Shown here piece after piece: positions 2,621 through 11,616 of a DNA stretch of 64,000 bases. Source of the stretch: a virus (lineage: Duplodnaviria > Heunggongvirae > Uroviricota > Caudoviricetes); IMG/VR virus record IMGVR_UViG_3300027963_000034, positions 1-64,000 of that record; one strand, given 5' to 3'. A model generated the notes under the pieces. The model was given only the letters and a program-made list of their open reading frames with translations, did not search any database and was not told the origin of the DNA. The position numbers and the translations under genes are program-made. Each line of letters starts with the position of its first letter. Position 1 is the stretch's first letter.

Positions 2621-3271
2621 TTATTTCTTTTTTATTATTAATGGAATTACAAATGCCAATAGAGTTAAGATTGAGAATACAGCATCAATCGCTTCTGTAT
2701 TCAAATCATGCAACCAATATGATGATACTAACTTTAATCCCAATGCTCCAATTACCCAATATGCCACTCTCTCCAATATAGGATTCTTCTCTAATACTTT
2801 CACAAACTTTGTTGTGGCAAATCTCATAGCAAGAATACCCACAAATACACCACCACATATCAACCATAAGTTTGGAGTGAATGCTACTGCGGCAAATACA
2901 TTATCAATACTGAATACTAAATCCATAAGCTCAATTGCTACGATGGTGGACCAAAGTGCTGATAGAAATGGTATCTTAATTGTCATCTTACTTTCCCCAC
3001 CTTGTTCAACATTTGTAGATAAGGCGTTATATGCTAAATACATAAGATACAATCCACCTGCTATTTTCAACCATACTAATTTGATAAGAACGGATGCGAA
3101 TAATAAAGCCAATCCTCTAAATAGATATGCCCCTGCGATACCATAGGTTAGGGCTTTCTTTTGTTGTTCTTTTGGTAGTTCTTTTACCATCGCTGCTAAT
3201 ACTGCCGCGTTATCAATACTCAATACTATTTCTAGTATCACAATATTTAAAAAAATTAATACTTCCGTCAT
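2621..3271 (-). CDS. terC: TerC family membrane protein
   Basis: LEIVLSIDNA and DLVFSIDNVFAAVA signature motifs. Confidence 0.9.
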   Translation of the reverse strand: MTEVLIFLNIVILEIVLSIDNAAVLAAMVKELPKEQQKKALTYGIAGAYLFRGLALLFASVLIKLVWLKIAGGLYLMYLAYNALSTNVEQGGESKMTIKIPFLSALWSTIVAIELMDLVFSIDNVFAAVAFTPNLWLICGGVFVGILAMRFATTKFVKVLEKNPILERVAYWVIGALGLKLVSSYWLHDLNTEAIDAVFSILTLLAFVIPLIIKKK

Positions 3272-5332: not shown

Positions 5333-5857
5333 TTATCGGTTTAGTTTATTAATACATTCTTCTACTTTATCTCTTAATCTACCACCATATCCAAAATCAC
5401 CATCAACTTGAACATGCCTCCACATTGGAATACGAGGTTTCATCCATTTAAATTCACGAGATAAATTTAAATCATCAATTGCTATCCAATTTGATATCTT
5501 ATTATCTTTAGCCCACTTCACAACTTCTAATGCTCTTTCGTGGTCTATGGATGGTCTACTCATTTTATTCCATAGGTCCTGATGTGTAGTTATATCAATC
5601 AATCGAGCACTTATACCATAATACCTAAATATTCGTTTAAGCTGATTGAAGGTGAAATGTTTTTTCCAATCTGAACTAACTACTAACTCAGCGTTTGTTT
5701 CATCACATATTTTTTGCAATGCCTCACAATCTTCTTTAACCCAAGGGTATGGAATTGTGAAGTCCTCTTGTCCTCCATCAATAGTAACCTTACCATCGTA
5801 CCATGTTGCCCAAACCAATGGACCATCAACATCAATAAAAATAATTTTCTTTCTCAT
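5333..5857 (-). CDS. HAD-superfamily protein (HAD_SAK_2-like)
   Basis: FIDVDGPL, VVSSDWK, WIAIDD. Confidence 0.8.
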   Translation of the reverse strand: MRKKIIFIDVDGPLVWATWYDGKVTIDGGQEDFTIPYPWVKEDCEALQKICDETNAELVVSSDWKKHFTFNQLKRIFRYYGISARLIDITTHQDLWNKMSRPSIDHERALEVVKWAKDNKISNWIAIDDLNLSREFKWMKPRIPMWRHVQVDGDFGYGGRLRDKVEECINKLNR

Positions 5858-6427: not shown

Positions 6428-6652
6428 TTATTTGTTTTTAATTAGTTTAATCAATCTAGGAAGTCTAAATAGCATAATAAGTAACAAAACAGGCCATATA
6501 GTAGCATACATTAAAAAATATAGCTCAAATCCTGCATTTTCAAAACAATATGGGGTAAGTATAACACTTCCATGGTCAATATCTATTTTAAATATTGCCA
6601 TTCCAATTAATAAATAGCATATAAAAAATGATGTAAAAAGTAAATAAATCAT
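6428..6652 (-). CDS. hypothetical membrane protein
   Basis: two hydrophobic segments. Confidence 0.55.
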   Translation of the reverse strand: MIYLLFTSFFICYLLIGMAIFKIDIDHGSVILTPYCFENAGFELYFLMYATIWPVLLLIMLFRLPRLIKLIKNK

Positions 6653-6669
6653 GTTTTAAATTTAATAGG

Positions 6670-6888
6670 TTATTTGTTTTGGTTAAATTCTATTGGTTCA
6701 GCTTTTTTCAAAAATTCATTTACTAACAAATCAAGCCCCATTAATTTTAATGTTTCTTTTATTTGTTGTTCTGTATATATGTTTTCATTATCTGATATTT
6801 CAAATGCAAAAATAGAATTATCATAGTGTCCCCAATCTTTTGATTGTAAATTAATTTTAGCTACTTGTTTTTCTGTATATAGTTTCAT
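6670..6888 (-). CDS. hypothetical protein
   Basis: ORF with internal repeat YTEKQV/YTEQQI. Confidence 0.55.
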   Translation of the reverse strand: MKLYTEKQVAKINLQSKDWGHYDNSIFAFEISDNENIYTEQQIKETLKLMGLDLLVNEFLKKAEPIEFNQNK

Positions 6889-6919
6889 AGGTTAATTAGT
6901 TTTTGTTGTTTGATATACT

Positions 6920-6951
6920 CTAATATACAAAGAATTTTAGAATTTACCAAA
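6920..6951 (-). promoter_or_regulatory. Bacteroidota-type promoter
   Basis: TTTG-N20-TATATTAG. Confidence 0.6.
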
Positions 6952-6991
6952 GTATTTATACTGATTTTTATGAGTATTTATACTGATTTTT
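6951..6991. repeat. 19-bp direct repeat x2 (agtatttatactgattttt), period 22
   Basis: copies at 6951-6969 and 6973-6991, abutting the -33 element. Confidence 0.75.
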
Positions 6992-7029
6992 TACTAATAT
7001 TTGAGTAATTAGAAATATATTTCTAATTT

Positions 7030-7103
7030 TGCACCCCGTCAGAGAATCGAACTCATGTCCATGCGAGGTTTTGGAGACCTGCTGCTTCCTTAAGCTACGA
7101 GAT
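7030..7103 (-). tRNA. tRNA-Trp(CCA), atypical
   Basis: acceptor ATCTCGT/ACGGGGT, anticodon AGGT-CTCCAAA-ACCT, TTCGATT loop; shrunken D-loop and bulged T-stem. Confidence 0.65.
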
Positions 7104-7108
7104 TTTTG

Positions 7109-7179
7109 TTATTCGGGCTGGATTCGAACCAGAACTAATTGTACCAAAAACAATTGTGCTACCGTTACACCACCGAACA
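7109..7179 (-). tRNA. tRNA-Gln(TTG)
   Basis: TGTTCGG/CCGAATA, ATTGT-TTTTGGT-ACAAT, GGTTCGAATCC. Confidence 0.9.
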
Positions 7180-7189
7180 ATTTCCAATT

Positions 7190-7819
7190 TTATAATACTC
7201 TACCCAATCTCCATCCATTAGGAATAATATCTATTTTTTTTATTTTTTTATTTTCAATTTCATTTGTTACCCAACACGTTCCAAATTGGGAATTACCTTC
7301 TCCTTTTTGTTTTAAAGAATTGGCTTTTCCAATTTTTCTTTTTGTTTTTTCAGTATGATTTCTACCTGTCCAATTATCTACATGTTTTAATATACCTGTT
7401 TGCCATAATATTTTATTTTGTTCAGATTTCCATTCTGATTTTTTTTTACGATATTCTGGATTAGCCCACATAAGTTCATTCATTCGTTTTGCTCCTTTTT
7501 TATATCCATCTACTGATATAAACCCACCACATCCACCAAAGACAATATTCATACACATTTCATCTTTCAGTAAATCTTCATTAACTAATTCTTTCTCCCT
7601 TTCAATCAATTTTTCTCTACTATCAAACCATTCAATTATTTCTAATTGAAAGTTTTCTTTACCATACTTTCGTATAGAATATCTTAATCGTTTACCACTT
7701 CCCAAATAACCATCTTTTAAATTACTCGTTGAGTGCATTCCTACATAATATTTACCATTCAACATATTCGTTGTTTTATAAATAAAATGATATTTTTTTA
7801 CTTTGTTTAAGTTTGCCAT
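7190..7819 (-). CDS. GIY-YIG homing endonuclease (Seg-like, NUMOD3)
   Basis: FIYKTTN..GKYYVGMH..YLGSG; HTEKTKRKIG and GEGNSQFG NUMOD3-like tail; free-standing inside the tRNA cluster. Confidence 0.85.
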   Translation of the reverse strand: MANLNKVKKYHFIYKTTNMLNGKYYVGMHSTSNLKDGYLGSGKRLRYSIRKYGKENFQLEIIEWFDSREKLIEREKELVNEDLLKDEMCMNIVFGGCGGFISVDGYKKGAKRMNELMWANPEYRKKKSEWKSEQNKILWQTGILKHVDNWTGRNHTEKTKRKIGKANSLKQKGEGNSQFGTCWVTNEIENKKIKKIDIIPNGWRLGRVL

Positions 7820-7868
7820 AGTTTATATTGTTTACACATATAAATATAACAAAATCAAAAAAGTCTAC

Positions 7869-7943
7869 GGAGCAGATGAGAGGAATCGAACCTCCGTCTC
7901 CTACTTGGAAGGAAGGAGTAATGAGCCATTATACGACATCTGC
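7869..7943 (-). tRNA. tRNA-Gly(TCC)
   Basis: GCAGATG/CATCTGC-T, anticodon loop CTTCCAA, GGTTCGATTCC. Confidence 0.9.
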
Positions 7944-7959
7944 ATATCAAATAAACAAT

Positions 7960-8033
7960 TGAGGGAAGGGAGAATTACGATATCTCGACCTGATGATTAA
8001 CAGTCATCTGCTCTGCCGCTGAGCTACCATCCC
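7960..8033 (-). tRNA. tRNA-Asn(GTT), atypical T-loop/discriminator
   Basis: GATGA-CTGTTAA-TCATC anticodon arm, TAGCTCAGCGGCAGAGC D-arm; T-loop ATCGTAA, U73. Confidence 0.8.
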
Positions 8034-8071
8034 AAAACAAAAAACCCCCAACTAATTAAAGTCAGGGGTTT
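8034..8071 (-). terminator. intrinsic terminator of the putative attenuator, immediately 5' of tRNA-Asn
   Basis: AAACCCCTGACT-TTAATT-AGTTGGGGGTTT followed by TTTGTTTT. Confidence 0.85.
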
Positions 8072-8102
8072 CTAAAATTCTTAATATAAATCTAGCCTAA
8101 CT

Positions 8103-8171
8103 TTACATATCTCTGCTACCCCAAATCTGATTTGGTGTACTACAAAGTGTATGTAATGTTAATGCTTTCAT
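8103..8171 (-). CDS. putative attenuator leader peptide MKALTLHTLCSTPNQIWGSRDM
   Basis: 22-codon ORF just after a TATATTTATA motif; stop-overlapping TAAAGTTAGG is complementary to the terminator 5' arm CCTGACTTTA. Confidence 0.7.
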   Translation of the reverse strand: MKALTLHTLCSTPNQIWGSRDM

Positions 8172-8196
8172 TTGTTATAAATATAATCGAATTAAA

Positions 8197-8268
8197 AAAG
8201 TAATCAATCTTCAAAATACGCCACGTCAAGTCATGCTCCGGTTAATACTAGCCTCGATGAATTACTTT
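8197..8268 (-). ncRNA. small structured RNA of unknown family
   Basis: ends pair (AAAGTAATT.CATC / GAT.TGATTACTTT) around a GC-richer core. Confidence 0.4.
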
Positions 8269-8310
8269 GCTATCATTATTGGAATCGAACCAACATTAAC
8301 CATTATGATA
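8268..8310 (-). ncRNA. tRNA-like minihelix lacking the anticodon arm
   Basis: TATCAT/ATGATA-G-CA acceptor plus GTTGG-TTCGATT-CCAAT T-arm, joined by a short linker. Confidence 0.55.
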
Positions 8311-8319
8311 AAATAAAAT

Positions 8320-9160
8320 AGGGATGAGAATACTCCATATTGTGAACCAGCTTTAGAAAGATTATTAGTTCCTTCCGTTTCCACTACCTTTTGAGTAGTA
8401 CCAATTCAATGTGGATGATTTAAGACTATCAGTCTATAAGTTGCCGATTACTCTCTACTTACTCATTTTCTTCAAGCCTCGCAGCCTGATTAATTCTTGC
8501 GGAATTAGAAACCTTTTGATAGAATCACAGACCTCTTGCGGAGGTATCGTGGCTAAGAACATCTCTTAACTATGTACACACCTTTCATCTGCAACTGGTA
8601 AACACTCATGCTTAATTTTTAATTGAATTTTTGATGTTCAGTATCAAATTGAGTTTTAGTTTATAGAATTATTCAGGTAGTGGTTTACCACTAGCTCCCT
8701 CATCTTTTGAATGAGAGAATACTAAACTACCCGATGCAATATCCCTACTGCGGTCTTTTAAGTCATCTTCAAATATAGGTTTTGGTAAACTCTATATAAG
8801 GATGGTAACAACACCACTTGTACACTATCTTATCTTACGTCCTTTCGGATAGCTTGATGTTAAGATAACTTTTAAACTGAATACCGCAATGATGTAGAGG
8901 GATTAAGTCTACACTTCTTACTGATATTCTATGGGTTATTCTTATTGTTGTTCCCAACTCAGTCGGAGTATCTATACTACCCCAACTATTCAAACTCTTC
9001 CGATATAGTGTTACCCTTTCGTACAAAGCTCAAATAATATCCCACTTGCATACTCAAGTTAATCTCTCCTTACGGGGAGAGTAACCGCAGATGTATCACT
9101 TAATACACCCACTTTATCCTACTTTCGTAGTTTATTTGACGACCATATGCGGCCGTTGTT
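8320..9160 (-). ncRNA. large (~840 nt) structured ncRNA, GOLLD-like
   Basis: no long ORF; many GNRA-capped hairpins (CTAC-GAAA-GTAG, CC-GTAA-GG, TCC-GAAA-GGA, two CCGCAAG loops); own promoters and boxA; size and tRNA-cluster context fit GOLLD; boundaries approximate. Confidence 0.7.
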
Positions 9161-9198
9161 TACTATGTAGAACAAGTCTACTATGTAAAAATTTAATA

Positions 9199-9210
9199 TT
9201 TTAAAGAACT
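9199..9210 (-). promoter_or_regulatory. boxA-like antitermination element
   Basis: AGTTCTTTAAAA between promoter and ncRNA; resembles rrn boxA. Confidence 0.5.
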
Positions 9211-9226
9211 TTCCTTTCGGTTTTAA

Positions 9227-9258
9227 TAAATATACGAATAATTTTTTATTCTGCCAAA
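9227..9258 (-). promoter_or_regulatory. Bacteroidota-type promoter (proximal) for the large ncRNA
   Basis: TTTG-N20-TATATTTA. Confidence 0.65.
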
Positions 9259-9328
9259 TTTATTAAAAGTTTTTTTGTAAATTTGATAACGAGTATCTTT
9301 CATCACCTATTGTTTCTCATTTACTTAT

Positions 9329-9360
9329 GTAATATACGAAACATTTTTTACACTACCAAA
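9329..9360 (-). promoter_or_regulatory. Bacteroidota-type promoter (distal)
   Basis: TTTG-N20-TATATTAC. Confidence 0.6.
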
Positions 9361-9380
9361 TTTATTTTCAAAAAACTTTT

Positions 9381-9466
9381 TAAGATGTTTGGTGTCCGGC
9401 TTTCTTCCCTGTTGAACAGGTCACTCAATCGGTTTTATTATTTGATGGCTTCAACCAATCATCTTA
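9381..9466 (-). ncRNA. 86-nt structured RNA of unknown family
   Basis: closing stem TAAGATG.TTGGT/ACCAA.CATCTTA, internal hairpin CCTG-TTCAA-CAGG; directly 3' of tRNA-Met. Confidence 0.5.
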
Positions 9467-9470
9467 TTTG

Positions 9471-9542
9471 TTGCAGGAGAAGGATTCGAACCTCCGACCT
9501 TGTGGTTATGAGCCACGTGAGCTACCTCTGCTCTATCCTGCG
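9471..9542 (-). tRNA. tRNA-Met(CAT), initiator-like
   Basis: C1:A72 mismatch (CGCAGGA/TCCTGCA-A), GTGG-CTCATAA-CCAC. Confidence 0.9.
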
Positions 9543-9551
9543 ATATTAAAT

Positions 9552-9583
9552 CTAATATACGATAACTTTTTTAAATTACCAAA
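9552..9583 (-). promoter_or_regulatory. Bacteroidota-type promoter for tRNA-Met
   Basis: TTTG-N20-TATATTAG. Confidence 0.65.
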
Positions 9584-9597
9584 TATATTTTTTATTT

Positions 9598-9647
9598 ATT
9601 ATTTAAGTCCGCTAGTTGTGTTAGTAGGATTACCATACTTAAATAAT
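9598..9647 (-). other. hairpin directly 3' of tmRNA
   Basis: ATTATTTAAG ... CTTAAATAAT perfect 10-bp arms. Confidence 0.45.
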
Positions 9648-9650
9648 GTT

Positions 9651-10036
9651 TGTGGAGATGACGGGAATCGAACCCGTGTCTTACAAAGAACTAATAATAC
9701 CAGCATATCACACGTTTATTTAGTTTTTCTTGACTAACAAAATATAAAGTTTGATGTATGTGGGAAACAAACTTTTAAAGAACCTGGTCTCGAAATTATT
9801 TTAAATGGGCTCCGACCTGTGACCCGTTATTTCACATTCTATTTAAAGTTCCACGATGTGTGCGGAAAGGGTTAGGCAGCTACTGCGTAATCCATACCTA
9901 CAAACGCCATTAAGTCGTTGTAAGTCATTGTTGACTTTTCGTCAGTTATTGTTTTGTGCAGGTTTAAAGAGTTACTATCACTTACCTCTACGTGTGGTAC
10001 TACCATTTACATTGCAATCAATTCCATGGCATCCCC
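9651..10036 (-). ncRNA. ssrA: tmRNA
   Basis: 5' GGGGATG / 3' CATCTCC-A with G3:U70; GACACGGGTTCGATTCCCG T-arm; internal tag ORF after AATAACT ending YAVAA-stop. Confidence 0.95.
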
Positions 10037-10088
10037 ATAATTGTATAATATATATAAAGAACTAATCAATACAAATGTTTGAATATGT

Positions 10089-10120
10089 CTAAATTATGAT
10101 AAATTTTTGATATTACCAAA
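10089..10120 (-). promoter_or_regulatory. Bacteroidota-type promoter for tmRNA
   Basis: TTTG-N20-TAATTTAG; boxA-like AGTTCTTTA downstream (~10055-10063). Confidence 0.6.
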
Positions 10121-10150
10121 TATTTTTACTAAAATGTGGATAACTTTCTT

Positions 10151-10200
10151 AAATCATTGAAAATCAACGATTTATAACTCATTGAATATCAATCAGTTAT
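10151..10200. repeat. two abutting palindromes with core ATTGA-N3-TCAA
   Basis: aaatcattga-aaa-tcaacgattt and ataactcattga-ata-tcaatcagttat. Confidence 0.7.
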
Positions 10201-10224
10201 GCCCTTTTATTATAAGTCAATGAC

Positions 10225-11046
10225 TTATATATTAATTTTATCCTTTATGTGATTATAAATACTTTCAGCTATTACATTGTGTCCTAAAATAGTAGCGTGG
10301 TCGTCAAATTTAGATGAATATAAATTACTATCTACTACTAATTCTCTATTATCCATATAATGCTCAACAAAACTATTTTTAGTTATACCATTATAAGTTA
10401 TGGGTATTCTTCTTTCAGCCAACCATTCATTTTTAGATACTAAATCACCATATTTATCATATTTTGAACTAGTCATTTGAGGATGTGCATCTCTCCAATG
10501 TATAATAAAAACAGGAATTCCCATTTCTTCATATGGTTTCAATGATTCTGCTAATCTATGTAATTTATCAATATGCGCTAATTCAACTATTTTCTCAAAA
10601 CTACCATATTCTTCTTCTAAGTCTGCAACTAATTGAACTACATCTTCTTCATCCATTTGATATTGTTGTAATCCAAATTCTATTGTTTTTTCTTTTTTTT
10701 CGGAATATACATAACTCTTACCTCTATCTAAATTTGTTATTTGAAATATGATAGCAGCAATAGTATCTGCCGATTGGCCATCCGTTGTAAAATGTTTATC
10801 GATTTCTCCTAATCCGTAATCTATATCTCCACCATTTCTACCATTATTCAAATCAAATGTACCAAATTTATCAGCAACCAATTTAGAAAAACGATTTTGA
10901 TGTATAAAATCTAATTGTTCGTAAGTGCAATTTTTTATAAAATAATGTTGCGGAATGAAATCAGTAGAAGTCGTTCCTGGATATTCTCTCTCTATACCAG
11001 CACCATATGTATATGAACATCCTGAAAAAATTAATCCTTTTGCCAT
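10225..11046 (-). CDS. SGNH/GDSL-like hydrolase
   Basis: FSGCSYTYG ... DDHATILGH. Confidence 0.6.
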   Translation of the reverse strand: MAKGLIFSGCSYTYGAGIEREYPGTTSTDFIPQHYFIKNCTYEQLDFIHQNRFSKLVADKFGTFDLNNGRNGGDIDYGLGEIDKHFTTDGQSADTIAAIIFQITNLDRGKSYVYSEKKEKTIEFGLQQYQMDEEDVVQLVADLEEEYGSFEKIVELAHIDKLHRLAESLKPYEEMGIPVFIIHWRDAHPQMTSSKYDKYGDLVSKNEWLAERRIPITYNGITKNSFVEHYMDNRELVVDSNLYSSKFDDHATILGHNVIAESIYNHIKDKINI

Positions 11047-11049
11047 AAA

Positions 11050-11616
11050 TTATTGTTTTGGGTAAAAGTAGGCACATCCTACTTTTATATCATTTAAGCT
11101 TTCTTTGTTTGTTTCAAATATATATCCGTCTTTCCCATAAATTTCCTCAATTTTATCTTTAACATAATCAAAATTAAGTAAATGTTCGTGGTTTTCGGAA
11201 TCTCTATATCTATCGAATTGAAATCCTAATCCATTATCAAAATCATGAATAATGATTACAGGCTTATATCCGTAATCTATGATAACTTGTAATTCATCTA
11301 ATAGAGGCCAGTAAGTATGCCAGTGAGCATCCAAATATAAGAAAAATTCACCATGCCCAATTTCTTCTACAAATTGTTTTAAGCAGTCGGGTGACGAACC
11401 TTTTAATATTTTAACTTTTGGATTTTTGAGTAATTCATCGTAGTAGTTCCACCTCTCTTCATCAACTTCACAGGTGTATACTTTATCAAAAATATTGGAT
11501 AATATTTCAGTAGACCATCCCTTATCAGTACCGGTTTCTATGATAGTATCCCAATTGAATTTTTGTTTTATTCGGATGGTATCAATAACCATCACTGCAT
11601 CGTGCTTATAACTCAT
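11050..11616 (-). CDS. class I SAM methyltransferase-like
   Basis: IIETGTDKG, GSSPD, LYLDAH, IIIHD. Confidence 0.7.
   Translation of the reverse strand: MSYKHDAVMVIDTIRIKQKFNWDTIIETGTDKGWSTEILSNIFDKVYTCEVDEERWNYYDELLKNPKVKILKGSSPDCLKQFVEEIGHGEFFLYLDAHWHTYWPLLDELQVIIDYGYKPVIIIHDFDNGLGFQFDRYRDSENHEHLLNFDYVKDKIEEIYGKDGYIFETNKESLNDIKVGCAYFYPKQ

Follow-up and report, generated by a model that had tools for sequence, protein, structure and literature searches.

A GOLLD RNA of a T4-like lake phage, its candidate boxA leader and the tRNA-like minihelix at its 3' side

A full-length GOLLD RNA in a lake phage

The window analysed here, a stretch of 64,000 nucleotides (nt) from a phage of the Caudoviricetes (positions 1 to 64,000 of IMG/VR record IMGVR_UViG_3300027963_000034), carries an 834-nt GOLLD RNA of the RF02032 family at 9154-8321 on the minus strand (-), an assignment of which we are nearly certain. 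When the whole window was compared with Rfam using cmscan, RF02032 matched 8734-8321 (-) with 290.1 bits (E 7e-82), nearly twice its gathering score of 150 bits, over model positions 1-416 of 416 and without truncation. The first-pass annotation had offered a GOLLD or a new ornate RNA of about 840 nt at this place; the end-to-end match decides for GOLLD, and the size was borne out. Neither ROOL nor an intron nor any other Rfam family rose above threshold in 8200-9460, so that of the GOLLD, ROOL and intron models only GOLLD passed. Because the Rfam model spans the conserved 3' half of GOLLD only, we examined the 5' half separately. A scan of IMG/VR with the conserved GOLLD 3' motif gave 120 loci, and the upstream half of the window element (9260-8735) matched about 90 of them in blastn comparisons. 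Homology with distant GOLLDs extends from 9154/9156 down to 8322/8314, and the length of 834 nt follows from these limits; the distinct full-length relatives (n=79) measure 776-832 nt.

The same block had been described from its letters as free of open reading frames, GC-richer than its surroundings and rich in GNRA-capped hairpins, and each of these traits was recovered. The frames that overlap 8320-9260 are spurious ones of 40-63 amino acids, the GC content is 36.9% in 8321-9154 vs 30.7% in the window and ~30% in either flank, and at least eight GNRA loops cap helices supported by covariation (Table 1). We assign a negligible probability to the block being protein-coding or belonging to another class of RNA, whether ROOL, a group I or group II intron or a novel ornate RNA. 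A 63-amino-acid frame at 8835-9026 could be cited for the coding variant, but no supporting evidence was found for it, and the changes among 64 homologues keep the base pairs rather than the reading frame. These identities are ruled out by the full-length RF02032 match.

Covariation supports the fold along the entire RNA. Alignment A1, made of 64 of the 79 full-length relatives, yielded 196 pairs when its fold was predicted by RNAalifold; 159 of these show compensatory double changes, and the window sequence fits 189. Among the 106 pairs of the 5' domain, 96.8% of the cells were canonical, compared to 76.7% (maximum 77.7%) after column shuffles and less than 40% when the partner was slid. Double changes were likewise found in 90 of these pairs, compared to a maximum of 74 in the shuffles and to 39-43 with the partner slid. 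The 3' domain behaved in the same manner.

The layout of the window RNA closely follows that of env-38. That GOLLD measures 833 nt, of which 1-420 make up the 5' domain and 421-833 the 3' domain, while nt 497-538 form a disordered linker (PMC12286853). Structurally solved GOLLDs are env-38, a 14-mer cage, and that of Streptococcus agalactiae, a 12-mer (PMC12286853, PMC12990946). The window RNA resembles known GOLLDs in its full model match, its conserved 3' half and more variable 5' half, its 834-nt length and an unstructured linker at the env-38 position; it is likewise phage-borne and adjoins tRNAs, and like env-38 it is preceded by tRNA-Met (PMC12286853, PMC12990946). It differs in two extra hairpin insertions that its clade carries in the 5' domain (~9079-9064 and 8855-8835), in a linker without a tRNA (a tRNA search of 8672-8600 found none), and in a minihelix that replaces the 3' tRNA or terminator. 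The L21a kissing loop of env-38 has a palindromic dinucleotide (GC or CG) at nt 656-657; counted from 9154, the loop CGCAA at 8501-8497 of the window puts GC at nt 655-656, env-38 being compared by numbering rather than by alignment, and relatives have GCAA or UCGA at these columns. With length and linker position matching env-38, it is somewhat probable, by analogy, that the window GOLLD forms a 14-mer cage. ROOL is likewise a large, ornate and cage-forming RNA of phages and prophages that lies near tRNAs (PMC5737381, PMC12286853), but its sequence and fold are unrelated to GOLLD and it has no match in the window.

The GOLLD body in metatranscriptomes

The stretch, or near-identical sequence, was found in freshwater, river and estuary metagenomes and in six metatranscriptomes. 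We mapped contigs of four RNA runs from four studies (X2, X16, X17 and X19) on 6500-11500 and recorded word depth; these data are assembled Logan contigs, which do not fix ends or strand, and contig-free parts of the region are not evidence of silence. The contigs keep to the GOLLD body, at depths of 500-200,000 compared to 0-400 in the flanks (Table 1), in agreement with the high expression anticipated in the first pass. Because carry-over of DNA would cover the flanks equally, we take the signal to be RNA. Zero-difference contigs from X2 cover 8375-8747 and 8718-9137. Contigs of the abundant RNA reach no further 5' than ~9171, and in X16 the depth falls from >10,000 to ~17 across 8337-8321; the leader with its boxA-like word and the minihelix, both discussed below, fall outside the abundant species. 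A single X17 contig crosses the 5' boundary (9109-9462) at a depth ~20-fold under that of the GOLLD body, and could represent read-through transcription or DNA. Taken together, these data make it very likely that GOLLD is a discrete abundant RNA, as seen in contigs that lack exact ends and strand. They place it among the most abundant phage transcripts of lake and estuary metatranscriptomes, with contig depths that cannot rank it against the tmRNA or the tRNAs.

On the 3' side, X16 contigs over position 8248 sum to a depth of ~2,100, while the adjoining minihelix region (8259-8321) stands at 17-59. A small RNA or leader of its own, of moderate abundance, may begin just 3' of the minihelix (~8200-8258, -).

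Two promoter copies and the GOLLD leader

A 29-nt promoter motif, TTGGNA-N4-AAAAAA-N4-TCGTATATT, matches the window eight times, each time on the minus strand, against 0.08 matches expected. Zero-mismatch copies at 9331-9359 (P1) and 9229-9257 (P2) occupy the two sites at which promoters had been proposed. The motif fits sigma-70 as TTGGCA-N17-TATATT, and P2 was the top sigma-70-type match in the region (10/12); a generic sigma-70 scan of the window revealed no enrichment, with 33 sites found vs 29.5 expected from shuffles. Promoters of Bacteroidota follow the pattern TTTG-N19-21-TAnnTTTG, which the window motif fits. The corresponding sequence reads TATATTTG in close relatives and the canonical cttatcTTTGtaaaacaa in more distant GOLLD leaders.

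Promoter content varied among the relatives. Four loci (L018, L043, L103 and L007) have the P1-type promoter only, followed by a conserved ATAGGTGATGAAAGATACTCGGTA element, and L031 has the P2-type only; both are present in the window and, in degenerate form, in L099. The stretch that bears P2 is a lineage-specific insertion absent from the four P1-only loci. The proposal of rRNA-style tandem promoters therefore holds in that both copies are good matches to the motif, but not as a conserved arrangement, since most close relatives carry one promoter and P2 lies in the insertion.

Two small hairpins of the leader are kept in relatives (Table 1). The ATAGGTGATGAAAGATACTCGTTA element has a hairpin as its lowest-energy fold, with a z of only -1.5. 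The arms of the hairpin just before the GOLLD core read GTGGG/CTCAC in L031 and GTAAC/GTTAC in L099. The leader hairpin, the ATAGGTGATGAAAG element, the last GOLLD hairpin and the minihelix all folded with energies within the range of shuffles. Further upstream, the spacer between tRNA-Met and P1 (9381-9466, -) is conserved in relatives (…GGTTGAAGCCAAC…AATAAAACCGA…AAAGCCGGA…) and contains a CCTGTT-CA-ACAGG hairpin.

A boxA-like word precedes GOLLD loci

The leader contains a 12-nt boxA-like word, AGTTCTTTAAAA, at 9210-9199 (-), the place to which a boxA had been assigned. This word is elsewhere written GUUCUUUAAAAUAUUAA, GTTCTTTAA or GUUCUUUAA, and its 17-nt form is given in Table 1. Within the window alone the boxA 9-mer GTTCTTTRA is not significant (5 found vs 1.9 expected); the word owes its significance to a conserved position in relatives and not to the window count. 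Of 88 loci, 82 have GTTCTTT[GA]A in the 150 nt that precede the GOLLD core, the background rate being 0.032 per 150 nt, and the other six have near variants of it. The family consensus, aaCGTTCTTTGAAAa, starts a median of 27 nt past the -7/-10 box, and the window word starts 19 nt past the -10 box of P2. In 51 of 71 distinct GOLLD leaders, the 32 nt before the word contain a hairpin of at least 4 bp; that of the window is a weak element because its stem has only 2 bp.

We compared the window word, as AGUUCUUUAAAA, with known boxA consensuses. It agrees with the E. coli boxA UGCUCUUUAACA at 9/12 positions and with the B. subtilis boxA-like consensus AUGAUCUUUGAAA at 10-11/13; the latter, near-identical to the GOLLD family word, binds NusB (PMC13753749). 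The longer form GTTCTTTAAAATATTAA agrees at 14/17 positions with a word in the leaders and spacers of Flavobacteriales ribosomal RNA (rrn) operons, which we read in genomes reached through chance matches of another scan. This word, GTTC(A/T)T(T/A)GA(C/T)ATATTGA, is present in the 16S leader of L245, L246, L249 and L250, and in the 16S-23S spacer of L245, L246, L253 and L254, where it follows the spacer tRNAs ~100 nt before 23S. Chryseobacterium has a GATCATTGACAT variant in both the 16S leader and the 16S-23S spacer, which are the two classical boxA positions. The exact Flavobacteriales 17-mer was present in 20/101 sampled genomes of the order vs 2 matches for a reversed control.

The word is not limited to GOLLD. 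In related phages an extended form, GTTCTTTGACATATTGG, lies 12-30 nt before tRNA and transfer-messenger RNA (tmRNA) genes in 32 cases (e.g. L060:9575, L077:4049, L002:3792 and L112:6297), often right after a terminator-like hairpin, and we therefore regard it as a signal that marks phage stable-RNA genes in general; the tRNAs of the window itself are without it. One further role of the word, pairing with the invariant UCAAAAG loops of GOLLD, was considered and rejected: the G/A variation of the word is not compensated in these loops, and the abundant RNA lacks the leader.

Mycobacterial GOLLDs limit the reach of the boxA feature. When genome contigs were scanned for the GOLLD 3' motif, most matches were due to chance, and the real GOLLDs among them were confined to Mycobacterium contigs (L157, L170 and L190, plus the weak L218). 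The mycobacterial rrn boxA, TGTTGTTTGAGAA, was absent from the Mycobacterium GOLLD loci examined, and the boxA feature is therefore confined to the aquatic, Bacteroidota-linked clade.

A tRNA-like minihelix follows the 3' end

A 43-nt tRNA-like minihelix begins 10 nt past the last GOLLD hairpin; its T-loop, TTCGATT, is canonical and retains G53-C61. When IMG/VR contigs were scanned for this T-arm, 20 were recovered, and in 18 of them the arm follows the GOLLD 3' hairpin at a distance of 15-20 nt. Four versions of the acceptor stem were seen, all of which pair (TATCAT/ATGATA, TATCTA/TAGATA, TTTCTC/GAGAAA and AGCTGG/CCAGCT), and close relatives have a tRNA-Gly-like gene at this position. Among 92 distinct GOLLD 3' flanks, sorted by a script with manual reading of the cases it left unclassified, the first 45 nt contain a tRNA or tRNA-like element in ~40% of cases, and about half of the flanks have an intrinsic terminator. 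The Mycobacterium GOLLDs L170 and L190 lie inside tRNA arrays with a tRNA at ~+13 to +16 after the 3' end; an immediate 3' tRNA is thus a rule common to mycobacterial and aquatic-phage GOLLDs.

tRNA-like 3'-end signals include mascRNA at the end of MALAT1 and the minihelix substrates of RNase P. The window element is like these in that it joins an acceptor and a T-arm mimic directly 3' of a long non-coding RNA and would be a potential RNase P target; it differs in its bacterial and phage-borne setting and in having neither anticodon nor D arm.

Other elements of this kind were observed as well. A second, unrelated minihelix (CGCAA...AGAGG-TTCGTTT-CCTCT-a-TTGCG) occurs within the first 45 nt after the GOLLD of L002, L048 and L113, and yet another acceptor-like hairpin comes right after that of L021 and L114.

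A proposed route of GOLLD production

These observations suggest a route of production, which taken as a whole, from promoter to cage, we consider moderately likely. Host RNA polymerase would initiate at P2 (9258-9229), with P1 (9359-9331) as a possible second start. Lying ~20 nt inside the transcript, GUUCUUUAAAAUAUUAA would mimic the rrn boxA of the host class and recruit NusB-S10 together with other Nus factors, rendering the polymerase resistant to termination. It could then finish, at a high rate, an RNA that is long, heavily folded and not translated; the Nus complex may also aid co-transcriptional folding. The leader would then be trimmed away, and RNase P would cut on the 5' side of the minihelix 10 nt downstream, freeing the 3' end of GOLLD. 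At other GOLLD loci a true tRNA or an intrinsic terminator takes the place of the minihelix. The mature RNA is expected to assemble into a homo-oligomeric nanocage, probably a 14-mer as in env-38.

The proposed leader has close counterparts in known boxA systems. In rrn leaders, which are served by NusA/B/E/G, SuhB and S4, a promoter, a small hairpin and a boxA are likewise found ~20 nt into an untranslated stable-RNA transcript (PMC13753749); the window word nearly equals the Flavobacteriales rrn word, and its two promoters are ~100 bp apart. Unlike an rrn operon, the cargo here is a phage RNA rather than rRNA, the tandem promoters are not conserved in relatives, and the likeness is one of sequence and layout, with no boxC or leader-trailer helix in evidence. 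Phage transcripts that carry a host boxA so that host polymerase resists termination are known from the lambda nut sites and from T7 (PMC2800207, PMC3709561), T7 having boxA behind its early promoters (PMC3709561). Lambda, however, needs the N protein and boxB, and no N-like protein was identified here; moreover, lambda and T7 apply boxA to mRNA operons, whereas here it precedes GOLLD and, in relatives, tRNAs and tmRNA.

Host Nus antitermination, named in the first-pass annotation, thus gains a boxA-like word before 82 of 88 loci that is close to the Flavobacteriales rrn word, with the Nus action itself still inferred. That the GOLLD leader word is a functional boxA that loads Nus factors is, on sequence grounds, slightly favoured. 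The conserved GTTCTTT[GA]A might instead be a processing signal (e.g. for RNase E/G-type cleavage) or the site of a phage protein, which we consider unlikely. Such a role would account for the likeness to rrn leaders if the same enzymes process rRNA precursors, and it would suit the position of the word 12-30 nt before single tRNA and tmRNA genes, sometimes after a terminator-like hairpin without an obvious promoter, the loss of the leader from the abundant RNA, and the mycobacterial GOLLDs that do without boxA. Against it, the word matches boxA in three phyla (that of E. coli, the NusB-binding word of B. subtilis and the Flavobacteriales rrn word), host genomes place it at both classical boxA sites, and it lies ~20 nt past a promoter and after a small hairpin, as in rrn leaders (PMC13753749).

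With regard to the 3' end, the simplest reading for this window is that GOLLD ends are made by termination or by an RNase P cut before a tRNA or its mimic, to which we give an even chance from the sequence. For a cut by RNase P at the minihelix, the drop in X16 depth across 8337-8321 is the single hint in the RNA data. The minihelix might alternatively be the decayed remnant of the tRNA of relatives, with the U-rich tract CCCUAUUUUAUUUUAU as the site where termination or decay sets the 3' end. The full tRNA or tRNA-like gene that relatives have at the minihelix position, the U-rich tract after the last GOLLD hairpin and the ordinary folding energy of the minihelix (z = -1.0) are in keeping with this. 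We nevertheless hold it to be improbable: an acceptor pairing kept through four sequences and a T-loop that is canonical in 20 contigs are not expected of decay, the unrelated minihelix after GOLLD in three loci argues in the same direction, and the last GOLLD hairpin, with only 3-4 bp, is a poor terminator stem at which no terminator was called.

Several points weigh against the production route, with its boxA leader and RNase P-trimmed 3' end, or against the data beneath it. Shuffles fold as well as the minihelix and the leader hairpins do, and the hairpin before boxA has a stem of 2 bp in the window. The window word has an A at position 8 where hosts have a G, so that its agreement with the rrn word stops at 14/17. 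Mycobacterium GOLLD loci carry no mycobacterial boxA, and the link between the two is therefore not universal to GOLLD. The host is inferred, and the cultured phage whose DNA polymerase comes closest has a cyanobacterial host. For the oligomeric state we extrapolate from a different GOLLD. As to expression, the RNA evidence consists of contigs without strand or end resolution and with no DNA run alongside, and variable flanks draw fewer related-strain contigs than a conserved body does, which inflates the contrast in X16, X17 and X19 but does not touch the exact-match contigs of X2.

GOLLD itself is already known, and what it is stays unchanged by this solid but incremental result. A full-text literature search for GOLLD with boxA or antitermination, outside which two key GOLLD papers fell, found no relevant paper; what goes beyond the searchable literature is how the ends of GOLLD are specified, by an rrn-type boxA leader and a 3' tRNA mimic. 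GOLLD structures were solved in 2025, and this locus with its ~90 relatives offers testable handles on how cells make the RNA: a defined promoter and boxA leader, expected to be necessary for full-length synthesis, and a tRNA mimic expected to set the 3' end. More broadly, and tentatively, Bacteroidota phages might run a 'pseudo-rRNA operon', in which an rrn-class promoter, Nus/boxA antitermination with RNA-chaperone activity and RNase P trimming at a tRNA mimic serve GOLLD and, in relatives, tRNAs and tmRNA; we rate this at somewhat below even odds. If it is true, the yield and assembly of GOLLD would depend on NusB-S10, for which the phage RNA might compete with host ribosome synthesis. The neighbours of GOLLD (tRNAs, tmRNA and a HAD protein of the RNA-repair type) give no more than a hint that it helps to sustain translation during infection, and our best guess, held with low confidence, is that the cage serves the tRNA and translation-maintenance programme of the phage.

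Genomic setting and host

The source is a T4-like lake phage of ~180 kb; the contig of a close relative has 179,990 bp and is 95% complete. All long open reading frames of the window are on the minus strand. Along that strand the stable-RNA island comprises, in order, tmRNA, a promoter, tRNA-Met, P1, P2, GOLLD, the minihelix, a terminator-like hairpin, tRNA-Asn, tRNA-Gly, an endonuclease and tRNA-Gln/tRNA-Trp/tRNA-Arg (Table 1). With tRNA-Met upstream, tRNA-Asn and tRNA-Gly downstream and tmRNA nearby, the expectation that GOLLD lies near tRNAs was confirmed.

Among the window genes is one for a T4-type family B DNA polymerase; of cultured phages, Microcystis phage Mel-JY01 has the closest version (49% amino-acid identity). 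No GOLLD match was found in Mel-JY01, and therefore no cultured system is at hand; likewise, a blastn comparison of 8200-9450 with 50,697 cultured-phage records gave no match. A member of the Bacteroidota of the Flavobacteriales type is the probable host. Since the GOLLD clade is tied to hosts of this type, Flavobacterium johnsoniae suggests itself as a system for expression and knock-down.

Table 1. Positions of the GOLLD RNA domains, leader and 3' elements, neighbouring genes and metatranscriptome depths in the window
Feature	Position	Strand	Basis or remark
tmRNA, long tag DEKSTMTYNDLMAFVGMDYAVAA	9652-10036	-	Rfam / tRNA search
tRNA-Met (cat)	9470-9542	-	ARAGORN and Rfam; own promoter-motif copy at 9554-9582
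Promoter P1, TTGGTA-N17-TATATT, TTTG at -33	9331-9359	-	zero-mismatch motif copy
Leader element ATAGGTGATGAAAGATACTCGTTA, small hairpin	9287-9310	-	kept in window, L099, L018, L043, L103, L007; flanks diverge
Promoter P2, TTTGGCA-N17-TATATT, directly before boxA leader	9229-9258	-	zero-mismatch motif copy
Minimal CC-GAAA-GG hairpin, boxB-like position before boxA	9213-9220	-	read from sequence, 2-bp stem
boxA-like word GTTCTTTAAAATATTAA, 17 nt	9193-9209	-	conserved position upstream of GOLLD loci
Leader hairpin GTAGA-cttgt-TCTAC, just before GOLLD core	9167-9181	-	compensatory changes in relatives
GOLLD 5' domain, ~420 nt	8735-9154	-	blastn homology, 106 predicted pairs; outside Rfam model
GNRA loop GAAA	9126-9123	-	covariation-supported helix
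GNRA loop GUAA	within 9079-9064	-	covariation-supported helix
GNRA loop GGAA	8954-8951	-	covariation-supported helix
GNRA loop GAAA	within 8855-8835	-	covariation-supported helix
GNRA loop GGGA	8745-8742	-	covariation-supported helix
GOLLD 3' domain (RF02032)	8321-8734	-	cmscan
A-rich linker inside 3' domain, unpaired, low conservation	8600-8672	-	alignment A1, no consensus pairs
GNRA loops GCAA, two	~8540 and ~8500	-	covariation-supported helices
GNRA loop GCGA	8482-8479	-	covariation-supported helix
tRNA-like minihelix, 43 nt	8268-8310	-	acceptor TATCAT/ATGATA 6 bp, T-arm GTTGG-TTCGATT-CCAAT, then GCA; no D-arm or anticodon arm
Terminator-like hairpin	8073-8040	-	
GIY-YIG (SegE-like) homing endonuclease	7190-7819	-	between tRNA genes
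HAD domain, 'Swiss Army Knife' RNA-repair type	5333-5857	-	PF18143, E 1e-20; beside tRNA island
TerC-family membrane protein	2621-3271	-	PF03741, E 1e-48
Word depth, 5' flank	9172-9338		X2 0; X16 0; X17 37; X19 0
Word depth, GOLLD body	8337-9171		X2 516-900; X16 71,000-211,000; X17 690-1,950; X19 7,400-36,000
Word depth, 3' flank	8170-8336		X2 0; X16 417; X17 7; X19 0

Homing endonucleases, of the HNH type, also accompany GOLLD in mycobacterial tRNA arrays (PMC6582537). The HAD protein may belong to a module for tRNA repair or translation maintenance. The tmRNA, for its part, is present as RNA in the lake sample, where a zero-difference X2 contig covers 9652-10028.

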